Source of the DNA: Candidatus Omnitrophota bacterium
Lineage (GTDB): Bacteria > Omnitrophota > Gorgyraeia > Zapsychrales > JANLHA01
Reading direction: 5' to 3'
DNA length: 32,000 nucleotides
Assembly: GCA_963662715.1 (NCBI GenBank)
Contig: OY759724.1
Location: 3,240,001-3,272,000 of the forward strand
In this document: positions 3,800 to 29,477 of the stretch, in pieces
Layout: each line of letters opens with the position of its first letter
Position numbering within the stretch: position 1 is the first letter of the stretch
The notes under the pieces: model-generated
What the model saw: only the letters and a program-made list of their open reading frames with translations
Told to the model about the DNA's origin: nothing
Database searches by the model: none
Translations under genes and position numbers: made by a program

Positions 3800-4603
3800 A
3801 TGTGGTCGGAGTCTTACGAACAATTGATAAACCGCAACATCGGGCTTATAACAAAAGAACAGCAAGACATCTTAAAAAATTCCTGTGTTGCCGTCTGCGG
3901 CCTGGGGGGCCTGGGCGGAACAGTCGCAGAAATATTAGCCAGGACAGGTGTGGAGTCCCTCAAAATCCTTGATCACGGCACGTTTGAGCCGACAAATCTT
4001 AACCGCCAGATATACTCCTTTATTGACACCAATGACCGGCTAAAAGTGGACGTGACGGAAGAATACTTAAAAAAAATCAATCCGGACATAGATATTAAAA
4101 AATTCGTGAATATCACCGAAGAAACGGCCCATTCCTTTCTTAATGGCGTTAATGTCGTTGCTTTGTGTGTCGATGCCCTTCTGCCTATCCTCATGCTCAG
4201 CCGGGCGGCCAGGGATTTAAAAATCCCTCTGGTTGAAGCGTGGGCTGTCGCTTACGGGAACGTGCGGGTCTTTACGGAAGAGACCCCTTCTCTCGAGGAA
4301 GCATACCAGTTCCCGACCATCGGCAGAGATATATCCAGCATCACGCCGGAAGAAGAAAGGAACCTGATTTTAAAATCGATCACCAGTATGTTCGTGCTGG
4401 AAGGCCTGCAGGATTTTTATCCCGAATCCGCTTCCAAACGTTTACTGGAAAAAGGCGAAGGCACCACATTAGCGCCTATGGTCTGGTTATCCTGTGTGAT
4501 GATGGCTTTTGAAGTCGTAAAAATCATCCTGCAGTGGGGGAAACCGGCTCTCGCTCCGGGATTTGCGGTTTATGATTGTGTTAATCATAGAATTCCGGAA
4601 TAA
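3800..4603 (+). CDS. ThiF/MoeB/HesA-family E1-like adenylyltransferase
   Basis: Rossmann motif VAVCGLGGLGGTVAEILARTGV, followed by LDHGTFEPTNLNRQ, which is typical of ThiF-family nucleotide binding. AAAGGA SD lies about 8 nt upstream of the ATG. Confidence 0.8.
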   Translation: MWSESYEQLINRNIGLITKEQQDILKNSCVAVCGLGGLGGTVAEILARTGVESLKILDHGTFEPTNLNRQIYSFIDTNDRLKVDVTEEYLKKINPDIDIKKFVNITEETAHSFLNGVNVVALCVDALLPILMLSRAARDLKIPLVEAWAVAYGNVRVFTEETPSLEEAYQFPTIGRDISSITPEEERNLILKSITSMFVLEGLQDFYPESASKRLLEKGEGTTLAPMVWLSCVMMAFEVVKIILQWGKPALAPGFAVYDCVNHRIPE

Positions 4604-5526: not shown

Positions 5527-5720
5527 AACATATCCCCTTTTAAACTGATTGACGGCCTGCTGCCGTGAGTGAACCACGGCTATGGTTTCATAAACACTTA
5601 GAGTGTATTATGGCCCAAGACATGAAGAATGACAATCTATTTCACCTGTTTTTTGCTCAAAAAACACAGATATACCGTACTTCATTATATAATAAAGTCT
5701 TTGTATTACAATAATAGAAT

Positions 5721-5750
5721 AGGGATGGAGACTCACGGTTCTCCATCCCT
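5721..5750 (-). terminator. third stem-loop downstream of the PEP-CTERM gene (11-bp stem agggatggaga/tctccatccct, 8-nt loop)
   Basis: Perfect inverted repeat 5721-5731 / 5740-5750. Moderately U-rich sequence follows on the minus-strand transcript. Confidence 0.45.
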
Positions 5751-5760
5751 ATTTATTTCA

Positions 5761-5829: not shown

Positions 5830-6654
5830 TTATTTCTTTCTTCTAAAACCAGCCAAACCTAACAAACCGGTTCCGAGCAATAACATGGATGTCGGTTCAG
5901 GAACAACTCTTCCTTCAATCGGGTCTTCGCTGTTTGCCAGCCAGCCAAAGCTGCCAGGAGCAACAGTGTCAAATTGACCGAAGAAATCAGCGTAGGAAAT
6001 GTTGCCTTCGTCATCGACTAACATATAGTCGTTGCTGTCAAACATATCAGCAGCGCTGCCGCCAATGACGACTAAATAGAAAGCACCGTCACCGGTAAAC
6101 GGCGTCGTTGTCGAATCAATATCATTATCATAAGTGATATGATCGTCTGTTGTATCGCCGTTACCAAACGTGATACCCGGAACAAGAGCTAGCCTTAAAA
6201 ACAACTCGCCGTCCGTGACTGTCGGGTAAGTGTTGCTTCCTGTTCTGTCTGTCGGACCACCTGTCGGATCAAAATCAGGGGTGTCATCAAGGTACAGGTC
6301 GATATAACCGCCAACTGATTGAATATTGAGTGATCCGTCAGAATTTACTGTCCAAGCATCATCGTCCAAGCCGTAAAAAATACCTGTTAATTCTTCACCA
6401 TCTTGACCGTCTTGCCAGAGCGTCTGCCCGGCATCCGTTTTGAGGGTGAAGACCTTGAAGATACTCCAAGCATCTTCTGTGCCGTCGGCATTGCCATAGC
6501 CATTGGAACTGCTAGTATACAGGGTGCCTGCGGTGTAATCGGAGAACTTAAACTCCACCTGCCCTGTATATCCGCCAAGGTCAAAGGCGTCTGCCGGAGT
6601 GCTGATAAAGGCAAGGCCTGCTATCAGCATTGTGATTAAAACAACTTTTTTCAT
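5830..6654 (-). CDS. PEP-CTERM sorting-domain protein (secreted, acidic D/G/T-rich exosortase cargo)
   Basis: Signal peptide MKKVVLITMLIAGLAFISTPADA|F. The C-terminus VPEPTSMLLLGTGLLGLAGFRRKK (nt 5833-5904) is a textbook PEP-CTERM: PEP, a Gly-rich TM helix, then a basic cluster at the extreme C-terminus. Strong SD GGAGGTAAAGG precedes the ATG. Confidence 0.92.
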   Translation of the reverse strand: MKKVVLITMLIAGLAFISTPADAFDLGGYTGQVEFKFSDYTAGTLYTSSSNGYGNADGTEDAWSIFKVFTLKTDAGQTLWQDGQDGEELTGIFYGLDDDAWTVNSDGSLNIQSVGGYIDLYLDDTPDFDPTGGPTDRTGSNTYPTVTDGELFLRLALVPGITFGNGDTTDDHITYDNDIDSTTTPFTGDGAFYLVVIGGSAADMFDSNDYMLVDDEGNISYADFFGQFDTVAPGSFGWLANSEDPIEGRVVPEPTSMLLLGTGLLGLAGFRRKK

Positions 6655-6867: not shown

Positions 6868-7716
6868 TTATCGCGCCCCTTCTCCCGTAAAGACAACTCT
6901 AAACGTTCGCAGGAAAATCCGCACATCTGTCCACAGACACACTTTTTTGATGTAAAGAAGATCATATTTAATTTTTTTCTTAACATCTTCGATCGTTTCA
7001 TCATAACGGTGCCACACCTGAGCCAGGCCGGTGATACCGGGTTTGACAGCCAGCCGTCTTTCATATTCCGGAATTTTCTTTCTTAATTGATCCACGAACT
7101 CCGGCCTTTCAGGTCGCGGTCCGATAACACTCATTTCCCCTTTCAGGACATTAAAAAATTGCGGAATTTCGTCCATGTGGGACTTACGTAAAAATTTTCC
7201 GGCAGGAATGAGCCTGGGGTCATCTTTGGCGGCCCATACAGGACCTGTTTCTTTTTCCGCATTGACTCTCATTGTCCGGAATTTGTATATCTTAAATAAT
7301 CTTCCATCTTTTCCCACACGTATTTGGGTGAAAATGACAGGCCCTTTGGAAGTCAGCTTAATTAAAAGGGCCGCAAATAGAAATAGAGGAGATAAGACAA
7401 TAACCGCAATAATGGAGAGGACAAAATCGAAAGCCCGTTTGGCAATGTAATAAGTCTTTCGGACAAAACTAATAATCATCCCGAAAAATCCGCTGCCGAA
7501 CAAGGCTAAGGTGGATGGTTCCGGGGCTCTGGATTTCGGAATATCAGCCCGGTCCTCGATCGTCATCTGCTGATCGTTCAAAGGATAAATATCCTGTGTC
7601 CCTTTATAATCAATCAGGGTCATTGTGGCCCAGGCCGTGGTTGCAGCAACGGTGCTGACCAAAATAAGCAAAATAATAAGAGCTGCTTGTCTGATTTTCG
7701 TTCCCATTTTTATCAT
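6868..7716 (-). CDS. priming polyprenyl-phosphate sugar phosphotransferase (bacterial sugar transferase, PglC/WbaP-C-terminal type) with N-terminal signal peptide + PEP-CTERM-like extension
   Basis: Residues about 92-282 (AKRAFDFVLSIIAVIVLSPLFLFAALLIKLTSKGPVIF...FRTM...DEIPQFFNVLKGEMSVIGPRPERPEF...KPGITGLAQV) match the Bac_transf family. Residues 1-87 form an extra module (see the next feature). GAGG SD lies 10 nt upstream of ATG 7716. Confidence 0.85.
   Translation of the reverse strand: MIKMGTKIRQAALIILLILVSTVAATTAWATMTLIDYKGTQDIYPLNDQQMTIEDRADIPKSRAPEPSTLALFGSGFFGMIISFVRKTYYIAKRAFDFVLSIIAVIVLSPLFLFAALLIKLTSKGPVIFTQIRVGKDGRLFKIYKFRTMRVNAEKETGPVWAAKDDPRLIPAGKFLRKSHMDEIPQFFNVLKGEMSVIGPRPERPEFVDQLRKKIPEYERRLAVKPGITGLAQVWHRYDETIEDVKKKIKYDLLYIKKVCLWTDVRIFLRTFRVVFTGEGAR
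7456..7527 (-). other. internal PEP-CTERM-like sorting motif (residues 64-87: APEPSTLALFGSGFFGMIISFVRK) inside the sugar transferase ORF
   Basis: PEP tripeptide, an 18-residue Gly/Phe-rich hydrophobic segment and an RK cluster. It is preceded by a Sec-type signal peptide (residues 1-30, ...TTAWA|T; nt 7627-7716). Closely parallels the genuine PEP-CTERM of the neighbouring gene. Confidence 0.7.
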
Positions 7717-7771
7717 TTATATTAAACCTCACTAAGAAAGCGTTTTCCGCCGCTTTTCATACCCATTACGT

Positions 7772-7788
7772 AGCAATTTGCGTGCCAA
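7772..7788 (-). promoter_or_regulatory. sigma-54 (RpoN) -24/-12 promoter
   Basis: The minus strand reads TTGGCACGCAAATTGCT, an exact match to TGGCACG-N4-TTGCW with correct GG/GC spacing. The -12 GC is at 7773-7774, predicting a TSS near 7761. That gives a leader of about 45 nt to ATG 7716. Confidence 0.75.
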
Positions 7789-8061: not shown

Positions 8062-8709
8062 TTACGGCAGATATTTATAAAGATACGGAGTGACCGTGCG
8101 GACAAAACTATCTATGGTTTGGAGGGATTTATCCGGATGATCCGGATCCACAACACTCGAGATACGAATAAGCGAGCCGCTGGAAGACTGCCCAGTCAAT
8201 TTTTTAATCGCGATAAGGGCCTGCCCTTTCAAATAACTATGCGTAAAGGTTGCCCCGACCTTAAACCAGTAACACATATGCTGACGAATGGCGCCCTGTT
8301 CCACCAGATATTTATTACAGAGGATATCCACCTCCGGCCGGCTGACATGAATCGTGTGGTAATCAGTGCTTAAAAAGGTCGCCCCCCCTCCCGTATAACA
8401 AATTTCCGGAGGATGAACGACTTTCCGGTTGGTCTGAGAGTAAACCACAAATAAATACACCGAGTCTCCATCGGCATTTGTATATTTCCGGGTAAAGGCA
8501 TTTCGCGTTTCCAGCAGGGCATATTCCTTATCTGTGATGGTTATCTCCTCTGCGACCCATCCATCGATTTCAGAAGGGAATTCATGAATGTTAGCCGAAT
8601 CAGCCTGCCGGTATTCCTTGAAATAAAGCGTCCAGGAAACTACGGCGGAAATAAGGAATAGTCCAATAATACAAATAAATTTTTTGTCAATTTTTCTAGA
8701 CATAGTCAA
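8062..8709 (-). CDS. epsI: exosortase-associated EpsI-family protein
   Basis: N-terminal TM anchor. FPSEIDGWVAEE... and HPPEICYTGGG motifs are characteristic of the EpsI/DUF3485 family. It lies 17 nt downstream of the exosortase gene. The track start 8709 is TTG; an ATG lies at 8703. Confidence 0.8.
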   Translation of the reverse strand: MTMSRKIDKKFICIIGLFLISAVVSWTLYFKEYRQADSANIHEFPSEIDGWVAEEITITDKEYALLETRNAFTRKYTNADGDSVYLFVVYSQTNRKVVHPPEICYTGGGATFLSTDYHTIHVSRPEVDILCNKYLVEQGAIRQHMCYWFKVGATFTHSYLKGQALIAIKKLTGQSSSGSLIRISSVVDPDHPDKSLQTIDSFVRTVTPYLYKYLP

Positions 8710-8726
8710 AATAAAATATTTACCGC

Positions 8727-9566
8727 CTATTCAATAACTTTGCTGACCCCCATAAGGAGAACAAAGGCTAAGGCAAAAATAAGAAACCCCGAGGCATCAT
8801 GCAGGAAACCGCCGGCGGCTTCAGCGCCCCAAATTTCACTGACGGTTGATAAAAATACGACCCGGCACACATTTGTGATGATGGCAATCGGGATCGTGGT
8901 TAAAAAAAGCCCGGCTTTCTTCCAAAACGGCCCTCTGAGCCAATAGGCAAAAATGCTCCCCAAAGCCGTTAGGGAGATCAAGGAACGCAAGCCGCTGCAG
9001 ACATCATCGACAACCACCTGCGTGTGACGCATGATGATAATACTCCCTTTACGCCTGGCCAGGATACCCATTCCGTTTAGAATCTTTTCCGCGATCGCTG
9101 CGGCAAACAGTTTCATCCGAAAGCTGATATTGACGATGGCCACTTCCGGCAACGGGAACATAAAAATCAAAAAGCTGACGGGAAAAAGGATCTCCTTAAG
9201 GATCTCCCGGCCGTAAAAATGCAGGACAAGCCCGAAAACAACCGTGAACATCGAAAGCCCGCCGGTAAAATTGATGCGGAACAAGGCACTGAAAAGGTAA
9301 AGTAAAACACCGGCACAAATAACCGGCAGGCCCAAGCGCGACTCCTGGACCGGAATATTTTTCAACTGATCCTTTTTCTGCCAGATCAAATAACCGCTCA
9401 CGAAAGGGATCAATATCCCGTGGCTGTAATAGGAATCCGCCACAAACCAGCGGCTCCACATCCAGAGAATCGTCGGGACATAAGCGACCAGAAAAATGAC
9501 ACCTGCTATGATCGGGCAGGAATGTTCTTTGAGGAGGGACTGAATGTTTACGATCTTCTGTTCCAT
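8727..9566 (-). CDS. exosortase (EpsH/Xrt family transpeptidase)
   Basis: Polytopic membrane protein with the N-terminal DSYYSHGILIPFVSGYLIW motif. Carries the conserved catalytic-type Cys in VDDVCSGLRSL, then NVCRV (Arg) and a late His (GFLHDASG). Subtype (XrtA-like with separate EpsI) cannot be assigned without HMMs. Confidence 0.9.
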   Translation of the reverse strand: MEQKIVNIQSLLKEHSCPIIAGVIFLVAYVPTILWMWSRWFVADSYYSHGILIPFVSGYLIWQKKDQLKNIPVQESRLGLPVICAGVLLYLFSALFRINFTGGLSMFTVVFGLVLHFYGREILKEILFPVSFLIFMFPLPEVAIVNISFRMKLFAAAIAEKILNGMGILARRKGSIIIMRHTQVVVDDVCSGLRSLISLTALGSIFAYWLRGPFWKKAGLFLTTIPIAIITNVCRVVFLSTVSEIWGAEAAGGFLHDASGFLIFALAFVLLMGVSKVIE

Positions 9567-9697: not shown

Positions 9698-11308
9698 TCA
9701 CTTTTGTTTACTTTTTCTTTCAAGATACCAGTGAATCATCCGCTTCAACCCTTCTTCTATGCTGACAGTCTGTTCAAAACCCATCTGACGAATCTTGTCC
9801 GACCCATGCCAGGTCATCATATTGATCTTTTTGATCCGGTTCGCTGTAATCGGGAAATTTATTCCGGTTATTCTAGCCAGGACATCGACCAGACTCGTAA
9901 CACATAAAATAGGCTTTAACGGCAGGTGCCAGGTGTAGGGCTTGCGGCCCAGGCCATCCGTGATATAACGGACCAGCTGTGCCGACGCATGATGCGGATA
10001 ATCCGAATAATTATATGCCGCGAGGCCCGGGCTTATTTTTTCCAGGAGAAACATCGTGGCCGCCACCAGATTCTCCACATAGGTGACGGACTTGATATTA
10101 TCTCCCTTCCCGACAAGAAAAAACCTTCTTTTGTAAATGGTGTCAATCAAGCGGAACATATTCGCATAATTATGCGGACCGTAAACAACAGTCGGACGGA
10201 CAATGAGCACCGCCCGCTGGGGGTCATCCTTAGCCCAGGCCTCGATCAACTCTTCAGCGGCCAGTTTTGATTCGCCGTAATCATTGGACGGATTCCGGGG
10301 GCATTCCTCGTGGGAACACTGGTCACTGTCCCCGTAAACCGCGACAGAACTGAAAAAAATGAATTTCCGTATCCCCAGCTCAGACAGGACATCAAGAATT
10401 CGCTGGGTTCCGGTTTCATTGATCTGAAAGAACTCTTCACGGGAGACTCCGAAATCATGGTGTTTGGCCGCCAGGTTAATGACCATATCCACGCCATGGG
10501 CCGCGGTACGCAAAGCCTGGCTGTCCATCAGATCGCCTTTGACACATTCATATCCCTCCCGGGGTTCGTCCGCCCGGCCGATATCAAGCCCCGTCACCTG
10601 ATGTCCGGAATTGAGCAACGCCCGGGTCAAATATCCCCCGATAAAACCCTCACTGCCTATAACAAGTATTTTCATGAAACCCAGCCCCTTTCTTACAAAG
10701 GATAAAATTTCGTCCGTGGCCAAAGCCAATCCCTTCTCCCCGTCCACAACAAGGTCGGAATTCTTCACCGTAGGAGACACATACCTTTTATGCATGGGCC
10801 TGACCGTTGCCAAATATTGTTCAATGATGCTTTCAACGTCCCGCCCCCGCTCCCGGACGTCCCGCAATATTCTCCGGGCAATCCGCAAATCGTCCGGAGT
10901 GTCAATAAACACCCTGTAATCGTAATACGGGCAAAGATCATCCAGCAGCGCGAACAGCCCTTCGATGATGACAACAGGTTTGGGATCGAAACGCTCAAAA
11001 GCCGGCTTGCGGGCATGCGTCCCGTAATCATAAACCGGTTTCTCTATGGGCTGCCCCTGCTGCAGGGCCGCAAGATGCTCTTTGAACAAAGCCAGGTCCA
11101 AAGCATCCGGATGATCAAAGTTGACCTTCATTCTCTCTTCGGCAGACAAACCGGAGAGATCCTTATAATAGGAATCCAGCTCAAGAACAGCGGCCTTGTC
11201 CTCACCTATTTCCCGGGCCATGTCCCTGGCGAATGTCGTTTTGCCCGAAGCAGAGCCTCCGGCTATCGCCAATAAAATAGGCTTCGGGGTATGTGTATTA
11301 TGATTCAT
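9698..11308 (-). CDS. fusion protein: uridine kinase/PRK-family P-loop kinase (N-terminal, nt 10676-11308) + NAD-dependent extended-SDR sugar epimerase/dehydratase (C-terminal, nt 9698-10675)
   Basis: N-terminal IAGGSASGKTTFA P-loop plus the DSYY, NFDHPDA, VIIEG and FIDTPDDLRIARRILRD pattern of Udk. The C-terminal half begins MKILVIGSEGFIGGYL (GxxGxxG) and contains SSVAVYG and the YGESK catalytic Tyr/Lys. There is no stop between the halves. Confidence 0.8.
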   Translation of the reverse strand: MNHNTHTPKPILLAIAGGSASGKTTFARDMAREIGEDKAAVLELDSYYKDLSGLSAEERMKVNFDHPDALDLALFKEHLAALQQGQPIEKPVYDYGTHARKPAFERFDPKPVVIIEGLFALLDDLCPYYDYRVFIDTPDDLRIARRILRDVRERGRDVESIIEQYLATVRPMHKRYVSPTVKNSDLVVDGEKGLALATDEILSFVRKGLGFMKILVIGSEGFIGGYLTRALLNSGHQVTGLDIGRADEPREGYECVKGDLMDSQALRTAAHGVDMVINLAAKHHDFGVSREEFFQINETGTQRILDVLSELGIRKFIFFSSVAVYGDSDQCSHEECPRNPSNDYGESKLAAEELIEAWAKDDPQRAVLIVRPTVVYGPHNYANMFRLIDTIYKRRFFLVGKGDNIKSVTYVENLVAATMFLLEKISPGLAAYNYSDYPHHASAQLVRYITDGLGRKPYTWHLPLKPILCVTSLVDVLARITGINFPITANRIKKINMMTWHGSDKIRQMGFEQTVSIEEGLKRMIHWYLERKSKQK

Positions 11309-13192: not shown

Positions 13193-13901
13193 TCTTCCTC
13201 CTTTAAAAAATCAGGGCCGGTCAGGGATGGTTTTATCTGGCGTTGACGACGGCCCGCACATATTAACTGAGCGATCTTTTGATCAATGCCTTCCACGTAA
13301 TTCGCATGATGCATGATGATGCCCTCGGGCACGGGCAGATCCATGCCCGGTTTCCAGTGTTGGCCCGTGATGGTCCCTCCCCCGTAGAACGTGTCGGGCA
13401 GGTATCGTACCGGCACGGCCTTATAAAATCGCTTAAGAAATACATCATTTTTTCTCTTCTCTTCATGCGAAGATACCGGTTGAAAGCCAACTGTTCCCTT
13501 TTCTCCTCTTTTTCCTGTTCATAAACCTTCTCCCATAATTTCAGAACAGGCTTATTGGCTTTAGCGACCCAAAAACCGGCACACAAAAAACCGTTGGGAT
13601 CATCCCGCTGACACACGATATCGTAATCGGCGATGCTTGCCAAAAGCGCTTTCCGGGTCGGCTGAAAGAATTGAATATCCACGTCAGAAAACACAAAAAC
13701 ATCCCCCCAGTTTTCCTTAACCACGTTGATAACCGTTTCCGTTTTAAATGATATGGATTTGCTCCAGGACGCCTCAAAGAATGCACCCCCGCCTTCCTCG
13801 CAGAAACGGATATCCAGGTCATAATCGTCCTGCAGGGAAGGCAGGAAGAATTCATCTTTAAAAATCCTGTGCGTCTCGGTGTAGACAGCCATCAATTTCA
13901 T
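13189..13901 (-). pseudogene. paralog 2 of the GT-A-like transferase, interrupted by a 1-nt deletion (frameshift near 13405/13406)
   Basis: From ATG 13901 it reads MKLMAVYTETHRIFKDEFFLPSLQDDYDLD...IRPCRY. The homologous continuation YLPDTFYGGGTITGQHWKPG...IDQKIAQ is in the other frame (ORF 13189-13416). That frame ends in a TGA overlapping the ATG of paralog 1. The in-frame product (to 13263) has a nonsense tail. This could also be a sequencing error. Confidence 0.6.
13268..13416. repeat. copy 2 of the identical tract (lacks one nucleotide relative to copy 1)
   Basis: See copy 1. The single-base difference (g at 12693 absent after 13405) is what shifts the frame of paralog 2. Confidence 0.9.
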
Positions 13902-13911
13902 GCTTAGGCCT

Positions 13912-15105
13912 TTATACCAGGGCCTGGATGACCGCCGTAATCTTATCGCCGATAACCTCCCAACGGTATTTTTTATCAACCAGTCCCCGTCCCCGCTCTG
14001 CCAATTGTCTGCGTTTATCCTCGTCACGAAGCAGGTCAACGATATGTCCGGCAAAGGACTGCGGATCATCGGCTATCAGAATATCTTCATGGCCCGTCAC
14101 CTCCAACCCCTCACATCCGATGGACGTTGAAACAATGGCCTTTTTTAAAGCCATCGCCTCTAAAATCTTTAAACGCGTGCCGCTGCCGATGCGCAACGGG
14201 ACGGCACACACCTGGCTCTGCATGATATACGGGGTCACAGTTTCCACAAAACCCGTGACATGAATAGAAGCATCTCCCGCGCACAGTTGACGCAGTTTCT
14301 CGGAAGGGCCTTTCCCGACGATCCAGAACGCGGCCTCCGGGACCCGTTCCTTGACCAGAGGGTAGATATCTTTCACAAAATACATCACGGCATCTTCATT
14401 GGGATGCCAGCTCATAAGCCCGGTGTAAACAATGCTGCAAGGGATTTCCCGGACATCTTCCAGAAGGTCAGGGACGTCCACCCCGTTAGGGATAACTTCC
14501 ACTTTGGCCGTTTTGACTTTAGCAAGGATCGCCTCCTTATCCGTATCTGAACAGGCAAAAATACAATCCATTTTTCCCCAGATCTCCCTCTCCAGCCGGG
14601 CCATGCGCCAGTATTCATAATACGCGTACGCCTTCTTTAACAGGTTTTTCTCCAGCAGAGCGTACCGCCTGATGATAGTCGATTCGACATTCTGTTCATT
14701 CAGGACCGTACGGCACGGTCCGGCAGGGATATAAACGGCCTGATAAACCGTATCACACATGATACAGTCGATACTTTGCTCTTTTAGCCATCCCGCAATG
14801 CCTTCCTTCATAAGAGGGCTGAAACGGCTGGTGACCCCCAGCGGCCGTGAAGACAACAAGCCCTTCAGCACACTCCAATAGAGGGCAACGCCTTTGTTCT
14901 TCATAAATTCCCGGGGAGGCGGAATGACAACATACTCCTGACATACCGCTTTTAAGGAATCGTGTTCAGCCGTATTCTTGTCTCCGTAACAGATAAGATA
15001 AATGTTATGTCTGGCGGCCAGTCTCTTAATGATATTCCCGGTCCGCATCTTGGCTCCCGTGTCAGACGGGAACGGGACCTCACGCCCGATGTACAAAATA
15101 TTCAT
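13912..15105 (-). CDS. family 4 (GT-B) glycosyltransferase, resembling the PEP-CTERM/EpsH1-system-associated sugar transferase type
   Basis: N-terminal MNILYIGREVPFPSDTGAKMRTGNIIKRLA... C-terminal GT1/GT4 signature VPLRIGSGTRLKILEAMALKKAIVSTSIGCEGL. Paralogous to 18515-19717 and 26705-27886. Confidence 0.85.
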   Translation of the reverse strand: MNILYIGREVPFPSDTGAKMRTGNIIKRLAARHNIYLICYGDKNTAEHDSLKAVCQEYVVIPPPREFMKNKGVALYWSVLKGLLSSRPLGVTSRFSPLMKEGIAGWLKEQSIDCIMCDTVYQAVYIPAGPCRTVLNEQNVESTIIRRYALLEKNLLKKAYAYYEYWRMARLEREIWGKMDCIFACSDTDKEAILAKVKTAKVEVIPNGVDVPDLLEDVREIPCSIVYTGLMSWHPNEDAVMYFVKDIYPLVKERVPEAAFWIVGKGPSEKLRQLCAGDASIHVTGFVETVTPYIMQSQVCAVPLRIGSGTRLKILEAMALKKAIVSTSIGCEGLEVTGHEDILIADDPQSFAGHIVDLLRDEDKRRQLAERGRGLVDKKYRWEVIGDKITAVIQALV

Positions 15106-15116
15106 AAAGACCTCTT

Positions 15117-16076
15117 CTACGGCTGTTGACGCTTGACATCATACCGGTTTCTGAAAGATTTCATTTTTATTTTCAGTTTCCAAATACATCTGAGGAACAG
15201 ATTAAAAATATGATTCGTATAAGTGTCATAATAGACAATCTGGGAAGGATTGATAAAGATAAGTCCCTTCCCCTGCCGGGCCATGTCCCGGTGCAAAGAG
15301 ACATGATCACATTCGGCTTCAACCCTGGCATCGGCATTCAGAAGACAATGGTACCGGAGCCCTTCAACGGACGGCTTCCGGTAAACAGCCAGGCCGTTAA
15401 ACGCCGAGGCCACCCGCATCATGGGCATCCCCTTTTTCAAAGGCTTTAAGAGATATTGATAGGCAAAAATCATCTCTTCGGTCTGCGGACGGGTATCAGA
15501 AACCTCTCTTAATGCGTAAGTATCGAAATAAACATAGCCGGAAAAGAAAGCCCTTCCCGGGGGGACATTCCGGCCGTTAGACGTGACCGCATCCCACGCT
15601 ATGGGCTGGCCGAACGTGTCGGCTATTCCGTCAAGCGAAATGTGAAACAGGTCCATGTCCACGATAATAAGGTAGTCGACCGTAAAATTCTTTTCAACAA
15701 ATTCCAAATATTTATTACGGTATTTCACCATCAGTTCCATGCGGTGTTTGGAAAACCACGGCCTGGCTTCATTATGGCTTTCAGCCGGGATCGTCTCCTG
15801 CCCGGAGTCTTCCGTAAGGATATAAACATCCTTTTTCCGGCCGGCCCATCTCTTTAAAACGTCTTTCGTGCCGTCTTTACTGTCATTTTCAACAACGACC
15901 ACATAAGACTGCGAAAAGCACGTCCTTAACTTTTCCAAGACAGCCATGTTTTTTTTCAGCCGTTTCTGGCAATCGCGCGCCAGGCCGCAAATGGCGACCT
16001 TTTTCTGCTTCATGTGTTCATAACCGCGCCTGACATTCTTCCGGTAATTTTGGGAACGGGAGACATACGGCAGCAT
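15117..16076 (-). CDS. GT-A-fold glycosyltransferase-like protein, family uncertain
   Basis: VVVENDSKDGT (nucleotide-sugar binding type) and IIVDMD (DxD). AAGGGGA SD lies 6 nt upstream of ATG 16076. Confidence 0.45.
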   Translation of the reverse strand: MLPYVSRSQNYRKNVRRGYEHMKQKKVAICGLARDCQKRLKKNMAVLEKLRTCFSQSYVVVVENDSKDGTKDVLKRWAGRKKDVYILTEDSGQETIPAESHNEARPWFSKHRMELMVKYRNKYLEFVEKNFTVDYLIIVDMDLFHISLDGIADTFGQPIAWDAVTSNGRNVPPGRAFFSGYVYFDTYALREVSDTRPQTEEMIFAYQYLLKPLKKGMPMMRVASAFNGLAVYRKPSVEGLRYHCLLNADARVEAECDHVSLHRDMARQGKGLIFINPSQIVYYDTYTNHIFNLFLRCIWKLKIKMKSFRNRYDVKRQQP

Positions 16077-16086
16077 AACAATCCCC

Positions 16087-18525
16087 TTATTCTATGATTT
16101 CCTCTATGCTGATATCATCAAACCAGGCCGTGCCTTTTCCGACCAGCTGGCAGGTAAAATATTCGATGGAGCCGGGTTCTTTAAACTGAAAAACCTGGAA
16201 GACCTGCGTCCAGTCCGTGGTTCCGGAAACCGGGTCTGTTTCAACATAAACGGTTTCACCGTTCTGGTATTTCACCTTCATCTTTATCAAGGCCCGGTCC
16301 GGTACATCCGAGGTCATGATCCAGGCTTTTATCACATAACGCTTCCCGGAGTCGATAGGGATGTCCTCTATATTCCAGGCCCCGACGCCCAGAGAATCCC
16401 ATCCGTCCGCCGAACCCTTTATCTCCAAACTGCGCAGCCCTGTGCGGCGCTTAAACCAGGAAATTCCCACGCGCGGACGGCCTTTCCATTGCTGCCGTTT
16501 CCAGCCCTGCTCCCCTTGTTCAAAACCCGGATTGGGTAAAGTTAAAGGCCTGGTCTTCCAGTCCCGGGACTCTGGCAAACCGGCCGGGCTGTCGGGCTGC
16601 ACAAACTCCTCAACCTTGGCTGTCCCGGGGGCCATCACTTCAAGCTGAATATCGTCAAACCAGGCTGTCCCATTGCCCACCATTTGAGCAACGATGTATT
16701 CAACGTCATTCTTTTCTTTGACCTGGAAACGGCTTTCATACCGCGTCCATTCCGTTGTCCCGAAGGGTCCGCCGGCCTCATAATACTCTTCACCCCCGCT
16801 TTCGGACTTGATCTTGATACGGACTTTAGCGAAATTCTCAACCTTATCCGTCTTTATCCAGGCCGAAAGTTTATATTCGACCCCCGGTTTGAGAATAAAT
16901 GAGGGCTGGTACTGGGCAGCCACCCCAACGGAATCCCATCCTTCAGCTTTTCCGCCCACGATTTTTAAAGCATACCGGCCCTTATGAGGAGACGCCGAAT
17001 CAATAACAACACGGCTGTCGCCCTTCCAGGTCTGCAGTTTCCAGGCCTGTGAACGCAGTTCAAAATCCCCGTTTGTGACCGGGATATTCAGGGACTTCAA
17101 TTCCTCTTCCGGCTGAGCCTGAGGATACTCATTCCGCACCAGACCGAAAACGCCGTCAAAATCCGGGACAAAATCCGTCAAATTCAAGGCATAGGCATAA
17201 ACCATATCATTAGCCTGCTTGATAAGGGAAACAGCCTCCTGGTAAGGTTCATCCTTCTGATCGACCAGGCCCCAGTTGGCCGGTTTTTCATCATAACAAT
17301 GCCGCGGGGGATCAAAGTACTGAAACCAGTGCATACCGACGATACGCGGGTCAGCGGCCACTTTCGCCAGGAACCGCCAGTAACTGACACCCCGGTCCTG
17401 CTGGGATTTGACCATGCCGTAAGGCAGGCCGGCGTCCTGGCCGGAAACAATAACCCCGAGGAGAATCGGTTTCTTGGTGTACGAATAAAGCTCGGCAATC
17501 TTTTCTTCGAATTCCGGATCAAGCCGGTAGCCTCTGTTCAGTCCGTAATAGCTGACGCCGAAAACATCCGTATACTCTCCGATCGCTTCAAGGATTTCCG
17601 GATATGTCCGGCTCGGACGGGTTCCCAAAACCATATGATGCGGGTCAAAGGTGCGCAACGTTTCAAAAAGGACTTTGGAGAACTGCAGGGCAATGGCCTT
17701 TAAGAATGCCAGTTTATCCTTCACAGCCTGCGCGGTATCTTCGACTTTTTCAGCGTTAAGAAGCTCTGCAAAATCCTTATAATCCGACTCCCAGGCCTGG
17801 TTCAGATCGTCAATGCCGGAATATTTGGCTTTCAAAAACTGCACCCAGGCCTGTTTCCCGGGACGGTCGGCCCCCAGGCGGATGAAATCATCTGTCAGGG
17901 CGCCGTGCCGCTGCTTGCTGCCGTACCATGACGGTTCGTCTGCCAGGAAATATCCCAGCAGCCAGGGATCGTCAATTAAAAAAGCCTGTTGTTTAAACCG
18001 TTCAAACATACTTTCGTAAACGGACTGCTGAAACTCGGGGGCAAAGACATCCGGGAAATAGCCATAATACCCTTCGGGGATCACGTTAGGGGCTTTTCTC
18101 GGCAGATCCACTCCCACAACATAGGCGAATCCCGGCTCCCGGAAAACCGAGGCCGAAGACCAGTCCCCGATCGTGTTGAATTCCCATTCCTTAAGACGTA
18201 ATCTCGTCACCCTGGCCCATTCCGTTTCATGGCCGTATTTTTGCACAGCCGCTTCCTGGTAAGGACGGCGTTTCGTATTCGTATCCGGGATCCCGGAGAA
18301 ACGGACGCTGTACACACCCACCGACCAGAAAACATTCCCCGCAGGCGTGACAATCCACCACCGGTCATGAATAGCCTCTGTATGAAAAGCCCCGGTCTTT
18401 GTTCCTTTTAATCCGGTCCAGCCGCCGAATTTGTCGAACTGCTGCTGGGCATGGCCAACGTCAGGTCCCGTAAAAACCCAAACCAGACAGACAAAAATCA
18501 TTATGATTTTTCGATTAATCTTCAT
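16087..18525 (-). CDS. secreted glycoside-hydrolase-like protein (TIM-barrel-type N-domain) with two tandem C-terminal CBM4/9-like (CenC-type) modules
   Basis: Signal peptide MKINRKIIMIFVCLVWVFTGPDVGHA|QQ. The N-domain has a GYFLADEPSW (NEP-like acid/base) motif. Two homologous modules of about 147 aa (nt 16636-17073 and 16090-16533) both start N(G/P)xFE...W and end GxGTAWFDDI. Confidence 0.6.
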   Translation of the reverse strand: MKINRKIIMIFVCLVWVFTGPDVGHAQQQFDKFGGWTGLKGTKTGAFHTEAIHDRWWIVTPAGNVFWSVGVYSVRFSGIPDTNTKRRPYQEAAVQKYGHETEWARVTRLRLKEWEFNTIGDWSSASVFREPGFAYVVGVDLPRKAPNVIPEGYYGYFPDVFAPEFQQSVYESMFERFKQQAFLIDDPWLLGYFLADEPSWYGSKQRHGALTDDFIRLGADRPGKQAWVQFLKAKYSGIDDLNQAWESDYKDFAELLNAEKVEDTAQAVKDKLAFLKAIALQFSKVLFETLRTFDPHHMVLGTRPSRTYPEILEAIGEYTDVFGVSYYGLNRGYRLDPEFEEKIAELYSYTKKPILLGVIVSGQDAGLPYGMVKSQQDRGVSYWRFLAKVAADPRIVGMHWFQYFDPPRHCYDEKPANWGLVDQKDEPYQEAVSLIKQANDMVYAYALNLTDFVPDFDGVFGLVRNEYPQAQPEEELKSLNIPVTNGDFELRSQAWKLQTWKGDSRVVIDSASPHKGRYALKIVGGKAEGWDSVGVAAQYQPSFILKPGVEYKLSAWIKTDKVENFAKVRIKIKSESGGEEYYEAGGPFGTTEWTRYESRFQVKEKNDVEYIVAQMVGNGTAWFDDIQLEVMAPGTAKVEEFVQPDSPAGLPESRDWKTRPLTLPNPGFEQGEQGWKRQQWKGRPRVGISWFKRRTGLRSLEIKGSADGWDSLGVGAWNIEDIPIDSGKRYVIKAWIMTSDVPDRALIKMKVKYQNGETVYVETDPVSGTTDWTQVFQVFQFKEPGSIEYFTCQLVGKGTAWFDDISIEEIIE

Positions 18526-19717
18526 GCATCACCTCTTGTATTTCCTGTTCAATTCTTTGCCCAATAATTTCCCAACTGTATTTCGTTTCCACCAGCTTGC
18601 GCCCGTTGACGCCTAAGGCCTGCGCTTTATCCGGGTGATTCAACAGATCCACGACTTTATCCGCGAAATCAGCCGGATCATCGGCTATAAGGATATCTTT
18701 CCCGTCTGTCACGTCAATCCCCTCGGCACCGACGGAAGTCGACACAACAGCCTTGCCCATGGCCATGGCCTCAAGGATCTTTAAACGTGTGCCGCTCCCG
18801 ATCCTTAAAGGCACAACAAAGACCCGGCTTTGCTGAACATAGGGCCGGACATCATCCACAAAGCCCGTGACGTTCAGGGAACGGTCAGCCGCGGCCAGCT
18901 GCCGGACTTTCTCGCCCGGGTTCTTACCGATGATATCAAAACTGACCTCAAGGACTTTTTCTTTTATAAGCGGATAAATATCATGGACAAAAAACAGGAC
19001 CGCATCTTCATTGGGATACCATCCCATCTCCGCCGTGTAAGAGAGCTTGGCCGGGATAAGCGGCCGTTGCGGGGCAGGAGAGAAGAAATCAACATCCACG
19101 CCGTTGGGAACAACAGAAAAACGCCCCTGGCCAAGCCGGGCTCCGGCTTCCTGTGCATCGACAGAGGAACACATAAAAACACGGTGAAAACGCGCCCAGG
19201 TCTCTTCCTCGTAGCGTTGAAATTTCTGCAATTGATCTTTTAAAATAAACCTTGCGACCGGATTCCGTCTTAGCCGGGTCGTTCTCTCCAGAAGTTTGGA
19301 CTCCAGGTTATGTTCATTCAGGACAGCTTTTCTCCCGCATAAAGATACGTTTACGGCGTAATAAACGGAATCGCAAAAGATCAAATCAACCCCTTGCTGC
19401 TGAATGATCTCCCCCAAAGTATCCCGCATCTCTTGAGACATCTTGCTCCTGACCAGCCAAGGATACCGGTAAAACACTCCTGATAAAAGCCGCAGGTAAT
19501 TGCGCCATCGGCTTTGGCTATGAACTTCCGGGGGGACACACACGACCTTGACCATGCGGCTGACCTCTTCCGGCAGAGAGGCGTTATCGCCGAAACAAAC
19601 ACAGAGCAATTCGTGGCGGGAGGCCAGTAATTTCATGATATTCCAGCAGCGCATGCGGCCGCCGTTGACGGGAGGGAACGGAATTTCCTTGGATATAAAA
19701 AGAATTTTCATAAACAC
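18515..19717 (-). CDS. family 4 glycosyltransferase (PEP-CTERM/EpsH1-associated type paralog)
   Basis: MKILFISKEIPFPPVNGGRMRCWNIMKLLA... and VPLRIGSGTRLKILEAMAMGKAVVSTSVGAEGI. The track start 19717 is GTG; an ATG lies at 19711. The 3' end overlaps the next gene by 11 nt. Confidence 0.85.
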   Translation of the reverse strand: MFMKILFISKEIPFPPVNGGRMRCWNIMKLLASRHELLCVCFGDNASLPEEVSRMVKVVCVPPEVHSQSRWRNYLRLLSGVFYRYPWLVRSKMSQEMRDTLGEIIQQQGVDLIFCDSVYYAVNVSLCGRKAVLNEHNLESKLLERTTRLRRNPVARFILKDQLQKFQRYEEETWARFHRVFMCSSVDAQEAGARLGQGRFSVVPNGVDVDFFSPAPQRPLIPAKLSYTAEMGWYPNEDAVLFFVHDIYPLIKEKVLEVSFDIIGKNPGEKVRQLAAADRSLNVTGFVDDVRPYVQQSRVFVVPLRIGSGTRLKILEAMAMGKAVVSTSVGAEGIDVTDGKDILIADDPADFADKVVDLLNHPDKAQALGVNGRKLVETKYSWEIIGQRIEQEIQEVMHED

Positions 19718-19718
19718 G

Positions 19719-20990
19719 CTACTTTCTGACTTTCACATCGTTTTTTTCCGGCCCCGGGTTCTGGCTCAAATGTGTCAGGGCCAGAGACAAGAAAACAACC
19801 AGCCACAAGGTTTTTTCCTGCTGGGCATGCAAAAAAAGCGCCGCCACCATAAAAGCAATAAGTCCCAAAAAAACACCTCGGGCATAACTGTCATAAGGCT
19901 TGATCCCGCTTTTGATGACCCTGTTGGCATGCCTTAAAGCCGAGAACAAAACCGACAGGAATAAAATAAGCCCTACGGAACCCATTTCAGCCATGATTTC
20001 CAAGTAAAGACTGTGCGCTCTGCCGGGAGATAAAGGATAATACAACCGGCAGTTATAATAATAATTTCCCGGGCCTGAGCCGAAGATCGGATAATCCAAA
20101 AACATTTCCCAGGCAGCCATCGCCAGATAATATCTCCTGACGGTGGAACCGATTGTGTCATCATGAGAATTTTCCAGCCTTGTCTTTTCAAACCTCTCCC
20201 AAACCGTTTGGGGCATAACAGAAACGAGTATAAAAGATAAAACACCGACTGTAATTAAAGCTGAAAACTTATTTTTGGCGCGGATAATGGCAAACAACAG
20301 CATAACCGCCAGCCCCAGCAGGCCTCCCCGGGACTGGGTCAGAATCAAAGCCGTAACCAAAATGACCGGGATGAAAAGCAATAGGAGTTTGACGATTTTA
20401 TTTTTTTCAGCCAGGCCCACGTAGAAACTGATGACAATGAAAGGCAATAAACTGATGGCAAAATAATTGGGGTCGAAATTCGTCCCTCTTAAACGCGACA
20501 TCATCAAAAGGTAGTCCGGACGGGTCAGGAAACTCAAGACAGACTGGGCTGAAGCCACAGCCATGGAAATGACGGCCACAATCGTCAGAAGCCTCAGCCT
20601 TTGCGGCGTCGTTATAAGCGCCAGGATTGTGAAGCCGAAAACCCAAAAAGAGGTGAATGTGGTGAAAAGCTCTCTGGAAAAGGATGTCGGCTGGGCAAAG
20701 CCGTCGATATAAAGATAAACCAAATATATGGAATAAATCTTAAAGCCGGAGGATTTAAGAAACGACCAGCTCCTCCCTTGTATAAGCAGGTGAATAACCG
20801 TTGCCAGAAAGGTCACGGCTCCGATGATCTTGATAGGGGTCATCATGGAAAAAGCGCCCAGGAACGAATACCCCATGGAAGGGATCAAGGCCTGGGGGAA
20901 CAGACCAACCGTGACAAGCAAGCCGATAAAAGGATTAACCACGATAACGATTCCGCCGACAATTCCCAAAAGGATAAAAAGTGCTGACAT
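19719..20990 (-). CDS. O-antigen ligase/Wzy-like polytopic membrane protein (putative EPS polymerase)
   Basis: About 10-12 TM helices. Contains the TQSRGGLLGL motif and a large loop typical of the Wzy_C/O-antigen ligase family. Confidence 0.75.
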   Translation of the reverse strand: MSALFILLGIVGGIVIVVNPFIGLLVTVGLFPQALIPSMGYSFLGAFSMMTPIKIIGAVTFLATVIHLLIQGRSWSFLKSSGFKIYSIYLVYLYIDGFAQPTSFSRELFTTFTSFWVFGFTILALITTPQRLRLLTIVAVISMAVASAQSVLSFLTRPDYLLMMSRLRGTNFDPNYFAISLLPFIVISFYVGLAEKNKIVKLLLLFIPVILVTALILTQSRGGLLGLAVMLLFAIIRAKNKFSALITVGVLSFILVSVMPQTVWERFEKTRLENSHDDTIGSTVRRYYLAMAAWEMFLDYPIFGSGPGNYYYNCRLYYPLSPGRAHSLYLEIMAEMGSVGLILFLSVLFSALRHANRVIKSGIKPYDSYARGVFLGLIAFMVAALFLHAQQEKTLWLVVFLSLALTHLSQNPGPEKNDVKVRK

Positions 20991-27893: not shown

Positions 27894-29477
27894 TCAGGCG
27901 TTCCGCCTTTTACGGTGACCCCATATCATAATCTTCTGCAGAGGCACGGCCTGCAGCAGATACGCCCTTTCCTGTTTATCAAATAAAACAGGGATGGCCA
28001 GACAGGCATAACATACCGTGCTTATGATCCCGCAGACAACAACATTAAAGTAACTGGGGGCCACGATAAATTTAAAAAGCTGCCGGACGAAAAACAGGTA
28101 TCCGGCGGTTAACAGGAAACACGGTGCCGCAACCTGCAGGTAATATTTTTTATGATCAAACTGGATAACATGGCAGATATAAACCGGCATGACGAACAAA
28201 CCCAAAAAGACCGAGGGAATGGCCGTCCCCAGGGCCACGCCCTTCAGCCCCATAAAACGGACCAGAATGATGCTTAATGTCAAGTTCGTAAGGGAGCCGA
28301 ACAAACTCACCAATGAAGGAAATTTATGCCGGGAAATCCCGTAAACGAGATTAATCCCGGTGACGTTCGTTAAAGAAAGCGCAGAGCTGACCACCAAAAT
28401 CACCAACAAAGGATAGGCGGCGATATACTCCGGGCCGACCCAGCGCAGGATAAACGGTTTTCCCAGAAGAATAATATTGCCGCCGATAATCAGGGAAAAA
28501 CACCAGGCAAGCTTGGAGACAAAAACATATTTTTCACGTATCGCGCCGAAATTGCCCACAGCTTCATACTGGCTGAATATCGGGGTCATCAGCCCCGTGG
28601 AGGACCATACCAACTGCGAAAAATATTTTGCCAGGCGCGCCGCGATGGAATAGACCGTTACAAACCCCACTCCCAGGAATCCGGCAATGACAAAATTATC
28701 GATGTCATTTCCGATCCTGGACGAAACCTGGCCGAGAAAAGAATAAATACTGTAGCCGAAGAATATCTTTAATTTTTTCCGGTTAAAATATTTAAAGGAA
28801 AATTTCATATACTTCGCAACAGCCTTTGTAAAGATAATCGTGATGATATGGCAGAAAACATTCACGGACAGCATAATGACGGCAATGGCGATGAGTCCAT
28901 ACCCTTTTTTCAGGAATAAAATGATCAGGCCGGTGCGTAAAAGCAGGTTCAGCAGGTCGACTCCGACATTAATATCGTACCGGAGGTGCGACTCCAGAAC
29001 CCCGTAAAATGTCCGGATCACAAACATTAAAGAAACGCTGACCCCGGTAATAAGCAAAAAGTTGCGGAATAAAAAGGCCTCGGCCGGATCGGGGATAAAA
29101 TACCGGGAAAAGAAAGCGACAATAACGGTGATACCAAAAGCCGCTAAACCGATAATGGAAAAAACCAGCAGCGCCGTATTAATGACCTGATTGCCTTCCT
29201 CATAATTTTTCAGTCCGAGTTCCTTGGACAAGAACCTCCGGACAGCTGCCGTTAGCCCCAAATCGAGCAAATCATAAAATCCGAAGACAGACCCGACCAG
29301 CATCCACATCCCGTAAACTCTGTCTCCCAGGGACTTGATGAGAAAAGGCGTCATAAAAAGCGCAACGATACAGATCGAGAACAGATTTGCGGCCCGGAGG
29401 ACGGATCCCAGGACAAGTAACGTCCCCTTTGTGTTTCCTGATTTGTTCACGCTTATTCCCTTCTTAAGGCTCCTCAC
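27894..29477 (-). CDS. wzx: Wzx-type oligosaccharide flippase (MOP superfamily polysaccharide biosynthesis protein)
   Basis: 527 aa, about 12-14 TM helices, typical Wzx composition. The track start is GTG 29477, overlapping the upstream gene by 14 nt. An alternative GTG at 29450 has an AGGGA SD. Confidence 0.8.
   Translation of the reverse strand: MRSLKKGISVNKSGNTKGTLLVLGSVLRAANLFSICIVALFMTPFLIKSLGDRVYGMWMLVGSVFGFYDLLDLGLTAAVRRFLSKELGLKNYEEGNQVINTALLVFSIIGLAAFGITVIVAFFSRYFIPDPAEAFLFRNFLLITGVSVSLMFVIRTFYGVLESHLRYDINVGVDLLNLLLRTGLIILFLKKGYGLIAIAVIMLSVNVFCHIITIIFTKAVAKYMKFSFKYFNRKKLKIFFGYSIYSFLGQVSSRIGNDIDNFVIAGFLGVGFVTVYSIAARLAKYFSQLVWSSTGLMTPIFSQYEAVGNFGAIREKYVFVSKLAWCFSLIIGGNIILLGKPFILRWVGPEYIAAYPLLVILVVSSALSLTNVTGINLVYGISRHKFPSLVSLFGSLTNLTLSIILVRFMGLKGVALGTAIPSVFLGLFVMPVYICHVIQFDHKKYYLQVAAPCFLLTAGYLFFVRQLFKFIVAPSYFNVVVCGIISTVCYACLAIPVLFDKQERAYLLQAVPLQKIMIWGHRKRRNA

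Follow-up and report, generated by a model that had tools for sequence, protein, structure and literature searches.

A PEP-CTERM sorting signal inside a predicted exopolysaccharide-priming transferase of Omnitrophota

What is the role of a protein-sorting signal that lies in the middle of a protein and is followed by a complete enzyme? The question is raised by an open reading frame (ORF) at 6868-7716 on the minus strand of a 32,000-nucleotide stretch of Candidatus Omnitrophota DNA (contig OY759724.1, positions 3,240,001 to 3,272,000), which we refer to as the window and which holds a large minus-strand exopolysaccharide (EPS) locus. The ORF is an uninterrupted reading frame of 282 amino acids (aa), with no internal stop. 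Judged from its sequence, the product, here named the PEP-transferase, is a natural and conserved chimera of four parts: a Sec signal peptide, a spacer, a PEP-CTERM module and a PglC-type transferase. On balance we favor the view that the module functions in recognition by exosortase and that through it the EPS-priming enzyme is coupled to the sortase; a cleavage probably follows, which would leave the enzyme as the retained remnant. What would then be new is a PEP-CTERM signal that lies inside a protein, is kept there by selection and has as its 'remnant' the enzyme that primes EPS synthesis.

The four parts follow one another with little between them, and the residue positions and order of parts given in the preliminary description of this ORF are all correct on direct reading of the sequence. 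Residues 1-30 (7627..7716; all parts lie on the minus strand) form the predicted signal peptide, with a basic n-region, a hydrophobic core and an AWA↓T site for signal peptidase I. The n-h-c pattern of M1-A30 (...TTAWA↓T) was read by inspection, and the Kyte-Doolittle hydropathy peaks at residues 10-28. A30 is nearly invariant and TTAWA(A/T) is conserved among 48 aligned homologues (alignment A1). The polar periplasmic spacer, residues 31-63 (7528..7626), is hypervariable and predicted to be disordered, yet its length is kept, the distance from AxA to PEP being 33-37 residues in most of the 120 best-scoring homologues listed. The PEP-CTERM module occupies residues 64-87 (7456..7527), and comprises A64-PEP, the transmembrane (TM) helix STLALFGSGFFGMIISFV and the basic pair R86-K87. 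A cytoplasmic junction of five residues, TYYIA (7441..7455), leads from the basic pair to the enzyme; in the 48-sequence alignment its Y89 is invariant and T88 is conserved in at least 90%. The enzyme opens at K93-RAFDFVLS..., six residues past K87. It begins with a re-entrant membrane helix, residues 93-122 (KRAFDF...LSPLF...; 7351..7440), which is broken at S109-P110 and at whose first residue PF02397 starts. The cytoplasmic catalytic domain, residues 123-282 with the stop (6868..7350), carries the D182-E183 dyad and P200-R201-P202. From Sec targeting and the positive-inside rule we infer that, once the signal peptide is cleaved, the protein has a short periplasmic N-terminus and crosses the membrane a single time, PEP lying outside, R86-K87 inside and the enzyme on the cytoplasmic face. 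Such a path from outside, through the TM helix, to a cytoplasmic enzyme had been suggested before; it is self-consistent and it holds. A Shine-Dalgarno (SD) sequence GAGG (7727..7730) lies 10 nt ahead of the ATG at 7716, and the homologues likewise start at the same methionine with a signal peptide.

The central segment is recognized by the models for PEP-CTERM signals. Residues 64-87 score 17.4 bits with TIGR02595 (cut-off 16) and 24.6 bits with PF07589 (cut-off 20.7), so that both cut-offs are passed; with PF02397, all the models against which the preliminary description proposed to score the protein were matched. The same description held the signal to be as good as that of a neighboring cargo protein. 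That was slightly generous. The canonical PEP-CTERM cargo gene at 5830..6654 (minus strand) encodes 274 aa with a signal peptide and a C-terminal VPEPTSMLLLGTGLLGLAGFRRKK (nt 5833-5904), and the protein scores 30.9 bits with PF07589 and 26.8 bits with TIGR02595. The two modules also differ in flavor, SRA-PEP-ST in the PEP-transferase against VV-PEP-(T/A/M)S in cargo, the transferase flavor being distinct and more conserved. PEP is followed by an 18-residue hydrophobic stretch, then by R86 (118 of the 120 listed homologues) and K or R at 87 (115 of 120). It is in its position that the module departs from the family. PEP-CTERM domains lie near the C-terminus 'virtually without exception', with a median of three residues after the domain, and atypically placed cases have been suspected to be non-functional (Haft 2006, PMC1569441). 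In the PEP-transferase 195 residues follow R86-K87, and the enzyme also follows the module in all 120 listed homologues. The departure from a C-terminal definition that was pointed out for this ORF is thus real, with a whole enzyme behind the module.

How well is the fusion conserved? The homologues were drawn from a search of 5.8 billion proteins, which also returned the protein of the window itself; the best 120 listed were analyzed. These are proteins of ~280 aa aligned over their full length, 60-84% identical and, where named, assigned to Candidatus Omnitrophota. PEP is invariant in all of them, and the spacing from PEP to the KR of KRxxD is exactly 28 residues in 119. Within the 48-sequence alignment P65, E66 and P67 are invariant, and conservation reaches 90% or more at A64, T69, S75, M80, R86 and T88. 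Mean pairwise identity is 0.30 in the signal peptide and falls to 0.17 in the spacer (residues 31-60), then rises to 0.73 in the PEP-CTERM module, with 0.60 in the re-entrant helix and 0.78 in the catalytic domain. Outside the catalytic part, no region of the protein is better conserved than the module. From these patterns the module is under purifying selection about as strong as that on the active site, and the spacer evolves freely except in length. A conserved module, a free spacer and a fixed spacing of PEP together exclude an assembly artefact or a recent loss of a stop codon. The suggestion that a mini PEP-CTERM gene was recently fused by loss of its stop is therefore refuted, PEP and its spacing being kept throughout the listed homologues and the architecture in a second phylum besides. 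Neither of the outcomes that would have pointed to an artefact, a faulty assembly or two separate genes, was found; every listed homologue is one continuous ORF.

The enzyme, too, is recognized by the models for its family. PF02397 (Bac_transf) scores 234.7 bits over residues 93-276, covering model positions 1-178 of 179, and TIGR03025 (EPS_sugtrans) is passed at 313.8 bits (cut-off 295.55). TIGR03013 (EpsB_2) is not passed: the score is 270 bits where 393.35 are required, and the match is confined to the catalytic part (model positions 240-443). Structures of WbaP and PglC are matched by sequence from residue 86-92 on (E 8e-36 to 2e-31). The TIGR03025 alignment reaches back to residue 44, but homology to the cytoplasmic part of the large transferases is unsupported there, the PDB and Pfam matches starting at 86-93. 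An AlphaFold2 (AF2) model built on the 48 homologues finds PglC in a Foldseek search (8e37_A, E 3.7e-13, TM-score (target) 0.76). Its pLDDT is 85-93 over most of the catalytic domain, with a helix break at residues 107-109; it is below 50 at residues 36-73, which are predicted to be disordered, and ~60 at 71-80. Residues 77-107 are drawn as a single unbroken helix, which the membrane would not permit. In the 48-sequence alignment K93, R94, D97, P110, D182, E183, P200, R201 and P202 are invariant, and S109 is at least 90% conserved. The mature protein is predicted not to be monotopic, with one true TM pass (residues 68-85) before the re-entrant helix.

The PEP-transferase is encoded beside the machinery that its signal calls for. 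The exosortase of the EpsH family (8727..9566, minus strand) scores 219.1 with PF09721, 166.3 with TIGR02602 (cut-off 105.55) and 72.3 bits with the TIGR04178 signature. It passes only these generic models, and no named subtype is reached (XrtD 198 against a cut-off of 400, XrtW 184.5 against 425, XrtA 171.5 against 208). The exosortase-associated EpsI follows (8062..8709, minus strand), with 91.1 for TIGR02914 (cut-off 42.8) and 107.4 bits for PF11984. The locus further contains a Wzx-type flippase (27894-29477) and a Wzy_C protein (19719-20990), both on the minus strand, together with a pyruvyl transferase and several GT2 and GT4 glycosyltransferases on the same strand. No second Bac_transf protein was found among the window ORFs scanned, leaving the PEP-transferase as the sole priming enzyme found in this Wzx/Wzy locus.

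The arrangement is shared by related loci. A profile of 80 residues over the module and the re-entrant helix (A2) was used to scan GTDB species genomes, and the family was found in metagenome-assembled genomes (MAGs) of Omnitrophota and in one MAG of Elusimicrobiales. Some of the Omnitrophota MAGs are deposited under the labels 'Planctomycetales' or 'Lysobacterales'. The distant matches in loci L017-L084 were rejected as members; they are ordinary transferases without PEP. Wherever the flank suffices (L001, L003, L005-L008, L010-L015, L087 and L088) exosortase and EpsI are encoded upstream on the same strand, and by tblastn those of L001-L015 are 53-64% and 43-52% identical, respectively, to the proteins of the window. 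EpsI comes immediately before the PEP-transferase in homologous loci, and exosortase orthologues at 53-64% identity were counted upstream of it in 13. L016 has an exosortase nearby, downstream of the PEP-transferase. One to six canonical PEP-CTERM cargo genes lie directly downstream in nearly every locus examined; those of L087 lie just upstream. A 23S_rRNA_IVP gene (PF05635, four-helix bundle) was seen beside or between exosortase and EpsI in four loci (L001:8365-8724, L003:2714-3100, L087:1820-2173 and L088:8275-8640) and not in the window.

The regulatory signals point in the same direction. A perfect sigma-54 -24/-12 element, TGGCACGCAAATTGCT (7772..7787, minus strand), lies 56-71 nt before the ATG, in the 345-nt gap between EpsI and the PEP-transferase. 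With the SD sequence at 10 nt, this bears out the earlier claim that the signals for expression are placed for the long form. The element is the single match in the window at one mismatch or fewer, and alone is not significant, 60 of 100 shuffles giving at least one. What makes it significant is that homologous loci conserve it. In 12 of 15 loci TGGCAY-N5-TTGCT occurs 31-90 nt before the start codon, and correcting the start codon of L006 raises this to 13. Across all loci fetched (2.23 Mb, both strands) the strict motif turns up just 15 times, which makes its placement highly specific. Genes for a sensor kinase and a sigma-54 activator lie nearby in L003 and L088, the latter also having rpoN; no inverted repeats that might be enhancer-binding sites were found upstream of the promoter. 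A hairpin resembling an intrinsic terminator, with a 14-bp stem and a T-run (5718..5753, minus strand), follows the cargo gene, and there is no terminator-like site between that gene and the PEP-transferase. The two genes thus look like one sigma-54-driven operon and are probably co-transcribed, in which case priming enzyme and cargo would be made together. Dependence on RpoN has been shown for the PEP-CTERM genes of floc-forming bacteria.

How far does the architecture extend? A search with A2 against 1.84 billion representatives clustered at 50% identity gave 496 matches at E <= 1e-10, and in 35 of the best 150 cluster representatives PEP or PDP stands at this junction. The same order of domains is thus found in relatives from Omnitrophota and Elusimicrobiota, the search having been proposed in the preliminary description. 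Several are long forms, in which a signal peptide is followed by an ecto-domain of 130-265 residues, the PEP-CTERM module and then the transferase: P0133 (458 aa), P0140 (485 aa), P0143 (480 aa), P0149 (428 aa), P0198 (421 aa; NCBI MFC2061069.1, Elusimicrobiota) and P0155 (372 aa, with a PKD domain). The module passes the PF07589 cut-off in four of the six, and P0198, P0155 and P0133 are in frame on contigs of three sources (NCBI, JGI, ENA). Ahead of PEP the long forms have cargo-like residues (AIPEP, VVPEP, PIPEP). Stand-alone PEP-CTERM proteins of 232-280 aa match the ecto-domain of P0140 at up to 62% identity (most at 47-62%); one of them carries the name 'PEP-CTERM sorting domain-containing protein [Candidatus Omnitrophica bacterium]'. 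In these relatives, then, what precedes PEP is a bona fide cargo domain.

The module can also resemble that of the local cargo. The fused enzyme of L087 has a module (IPEPGTLLLFGTGLLGMIGSFARKRF) that shares 61-62% identity with the signals at the C-termini of the two cargo proteins whose genes lie just upstream. Within one genome PEP-CTERM tails resemble each other (Haft 2006, PMC1569441), and a likeness of this kind suggests that the signals of fused enzyme and cargo answer to the same sortase. Another internal occurrence of the signal, in a protein of a different kind, was seen in P0165 (NCBI MCA9247495.1, a Planctomycetales MAG, on an 8.7-kb contig). This consists of 2500 aa in ~10 tandem units, each ending in a full PEP-CTERM and RRRR and followed without a stop by the apparent signal peptide of the next. 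Two readings suggest themselves, a polyprotein whose PEP-CTERM signals are internal, which would be topologically coherent, or a set of genes merged by missed stops or recoding; a polyprotein would hint at a more general processing of internal PEP-CTERM signals.

We can now ask how such a protein might work. The signal peptide and spacer would have the sole role of placing PEP on the periplasmic side; a signal peptide and a spacer free in sequence but constant in length are to be expected if exposing PEP outside is all that they do. The exosortase/EpsI pair encoded just upstream would recognize the module, as it would the canonical cargo encoded downstream, and recognition would bring the enzyme that starts the polysaccharide to the sorting machine. 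The exosortase would then remove the small ecto-peptide, a full cargo domain in the relatives, as it would from cargo. The cut would break the stretch SRAPEPSTLALF and leave a new N-terminus near PEP, and the TM helix and transferase, normally the discarded piece, would stay in the membrane as a working enzyme. A stricter version, with cleavage as an obligatory step of maturation or licensing and the active remnant staying at the sortase, so that EPS initiation and sorting are coupled one-to-one, is possible but rather doubtful. As a reason for the coupling, the lipid-linked glycan begun by the PEP-transferase could be the acceptor, or the matrix, that receives the exosortase cargo.

The cleavage is the least certain step, and whether it occurs or the protein is instead a stable, uncleaved tether seems to us about evenly balanced. 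Several points weigh against the mechanism as we have drawn it. To our knowledge no exosortase cleavage site has been defined biochemically, and both binding and cleavage by the exosortase are inferred from sequence. In the short Omnitrophota form PEP is preceded by R (108 of the 120 listed) and A (119 of 120), against V/I-V/I in the neighboring cargo, and this could reflect a different handling, such as binding without cleavage. The peptide that the short form would release is hypervariable, with no function evident for it. The AF2 model was inspected for packing between TM helix and enzyme; at its low confidence it is uninformative on the TM segment. Among the more divergent members of the family the sigma-54 motif was not found in L085-L088, and there is no exosortase within 10 kb in the distant loci L085 and L086.

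These same features of the short form make the tether the most serious rival. Here the module would be a pseudo-substrate that docks in the exosortase without turnover, holding the enzyme with the exosortase/EpsI pair or gating the sortase. The short form has a conserved flavor of its own, S/A-R-A-PEP-S-T ... G-M ... S-F-V-R-R/K-T-Y, unlike the V-V-PEP of local cargo; its ecto-part looks like a functionless spacer of constant length; and the conservation of the module exceeds that of typical cargo tails. It is the R-A before PEP and the ecto-peptide without evident function that keep this rival in contention. Against it, one would expect a motif that is complete to be cut by a thiol transpeptidase, and the ecto-domains of the long forms, homologous to true cargo and with cargo-like residues before PEP, are sensible only if released. 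Cleavage is somewhat favored for the latter reason, since such cargo domains would serve no purpose if they stayed on the inner membrane and the residues ahead of PEP in the long forms are those of cargo. We regard the tether as a minority possibility that must be taken seriously. Both exosortase-linked readings raised in the preliminary description, processing or activation of the enzyme and its tethering as a pseudo-substrate, are strengthened by selection, synteny, co-regulation by sigma-54 and the cargo-type ecto-domains, but these do not settle the choice between them.

A second rival dispenses with the exosortase. The segment would be a relic, once a PEP-CTERM signal and now a plain TM anchor with its N-terminus outside and no exosortase interaction. 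Large phosphoglycosyl transferases also have extra N-terminal TM helices, which are dispensable in the WbaP type, and the two distant loci without a nearby exosortase would suit such an anchor. Yet an anchor needs neither an invariant periplasmic PEP, nor S/A-R-A, nor a signal peptide to expose them. Nor does it sit well with a module conserved to the level of the catalytic domain, with strict synteny with exosortase/EpsI and cargo, or with the cargo-like flavor of the module in L087. It is the invariance of the periplasmic motif above all that makes a pure relic improbable.

The weakest explanation is an artefact or recent accident (a lost stop, a frameshift or a mis-assembly, or a protein made only from an internal start at Met80), which could appeal to the plausible PglC-like N-terminus that Met80 would give and to the mini PEP-CTERM genes of ~90-105 aa in related loci, but which we consider scarcely credible in the face of the same ORF with fixed spacing in the 120 best-scoring independent homologues listed, from many assemblies and sources, purifying selection on the upstream part, and a promoter and SD sequence that serve the long form. 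Met80 itself (7477-7479, minus strand) lies within the TM helix of the module and is conserved in 115 of the 120 close homologues listed (G-M-I/V). We rejected it as the explanation: no SD-like sequence was seen upstream by inspection, the distant relatives have no methionine at the equivalent position, and the selection upstream would be unexplained. An additional start there, giving a plain PglC-like enzyme, is possible, and would likewise leave the conserved upstream coding unexplained.

An origin of the fusion from the mini PEP-CTERM genes was also rejected, these being of a different type, with a lipobox signal, a Gly/Ser linker and an HNPEPAT motif. Such proteins (89-141 aa) recur downstream of the PEP-transferase in related loci, with none in the window; their ORFs start on the plus strand at L003:13639, L006:9706, L007:9376, L010:9769, L011:12448, L014:8720, L015:2263 and L088:13317. 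They combine a lipoprotein-type signal (…YGC or …TAC lipobox), a Gly/Ser-rich spacer and an (H/T)NPEPA(T/S)M signal, and so would carry a lipid anchor at one end and an exosortase tag at the other.

Some other features of these loci were encountered. In the window an 812-aa protein with two CBM_4_9 stretches (16087-18525, minus strand) is encoded among the EPS glycosyltransferase genes. Directly upstream of the exosortase gene is a fusion of 536 aa (9698-11308, minus strand), in which a domain of the uridine kinase/phosphoribulokinase family (residues 13-189) precedes an NAD-dependent sugar epimerase/dehydratase (214-428). Beyond the cargo gene lies a ThiF-family gene (3800-4603, plus strand). 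In L001 the cargo genes are followed at once by a cluster (13265-18712) of ThiF, MMPL, LolA-like (TP_0789-like) and DUF1302 genes; such a cluster may serve these loci as a conserved accessory module for export. Genes for PorV/PorQ-like outer-membrane proteins lie near those of the divergent PEP-transferases P0198, of Elusimicrobiota (L085:18199-19221), and P0155 (L086:14428-15360), and L086 also encodes a protein with a T9SS-type Por_Secre_tail.

Why should the fusion matter? Exosortases were predicted in 2006 from the co-occurrence of their genes with PEP-CTERM proteins and exopolysaccharide loci (Haft 2006, PMC1569441). The PEP-transferase is the first direct link between sorting and the initiation of a polysaccharide that we could find at the level of sequence. 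It is conserved across Omnitrophota and present in Elusimicrobiota. As the preliminary description supposed, full-text literature searches returned no description of a PEP-CTERM/transferase fusion. Public annotation gives these proteins as 'sugar transferase' (NCBI, JGI) or 'exopolysaccharide biosynthesis polyprenyl glycosylphosphotransferase', while the Pfam pair PF07589 and PF02397 is visible in precomputed domain tables; as far as we can tell the architecture is latent in the databases but undescribed. A strictly C-terminal definition of PEP-CTERM thus leaves out real, selected cases, which bears on the rules of annotation. For biochemistry the protein offers a compact substrate, being small, with its ends on opposite sides of the membrane, a dispensable 'cargo' and a 'remnant' whose activity can be assayed. 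The Omnitrophota are abundant, mostly uncultured nanobacteria with a host-attached lifestyle, on which the biogenesis of surface and matrix bears. We know of no case where the remnant of sorting is a conserved enzyme, and the literature searches brought up none.

Set beside known systems, the PEP-transferase is familiar in each of its elements. With the PEP-CTERM/exosortase system (Haft 2006, PMC1569441) it shares the tripartite module, the EPS locus and the sigma-54 promoter; it differs in that the module is not C-terminal and that the 'cargo' is only a variable peptide of 33 residues. Residues 93-282 share with the small monotopic PglC (Campylobacter; PDB 8e37 and 8g1n) the fold, the Ser-Pro break, the Asp-Glu dyad and the PRP. 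PglC, however, starts a few residues before its re-entrant helix and never crosses the membrane, whereas the PEP-transferase has 92 extra N-terminal residues, a TM pass and a periplasmic end. TIGR03013 (EpsB_2) and the large enzymes of the WbaP/WcaJ type are also Bac_transf priming enzymes with N-terminal membrane segments and a genomic tie to exosortase. Their N-terminal domain is polytopic, of ~240 residues and without a PEP motif, and the link to exosortase is by co-occurrence only, in contrast to the embedded signal found here. The sortase/LPXTG, archaeosortase/PGF-CTERM and rhombosortase/GlyGly-CTERM systems follow the same logic of a motif, a TM helix and a basic tail, with a dedicated, membrane-associated sorting enzyme that frees the exported part from the TM segment. 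In all three the remnant in the membrane is a short, disposable peptide, where in the PEP-transferase it would be a whole enzyme.

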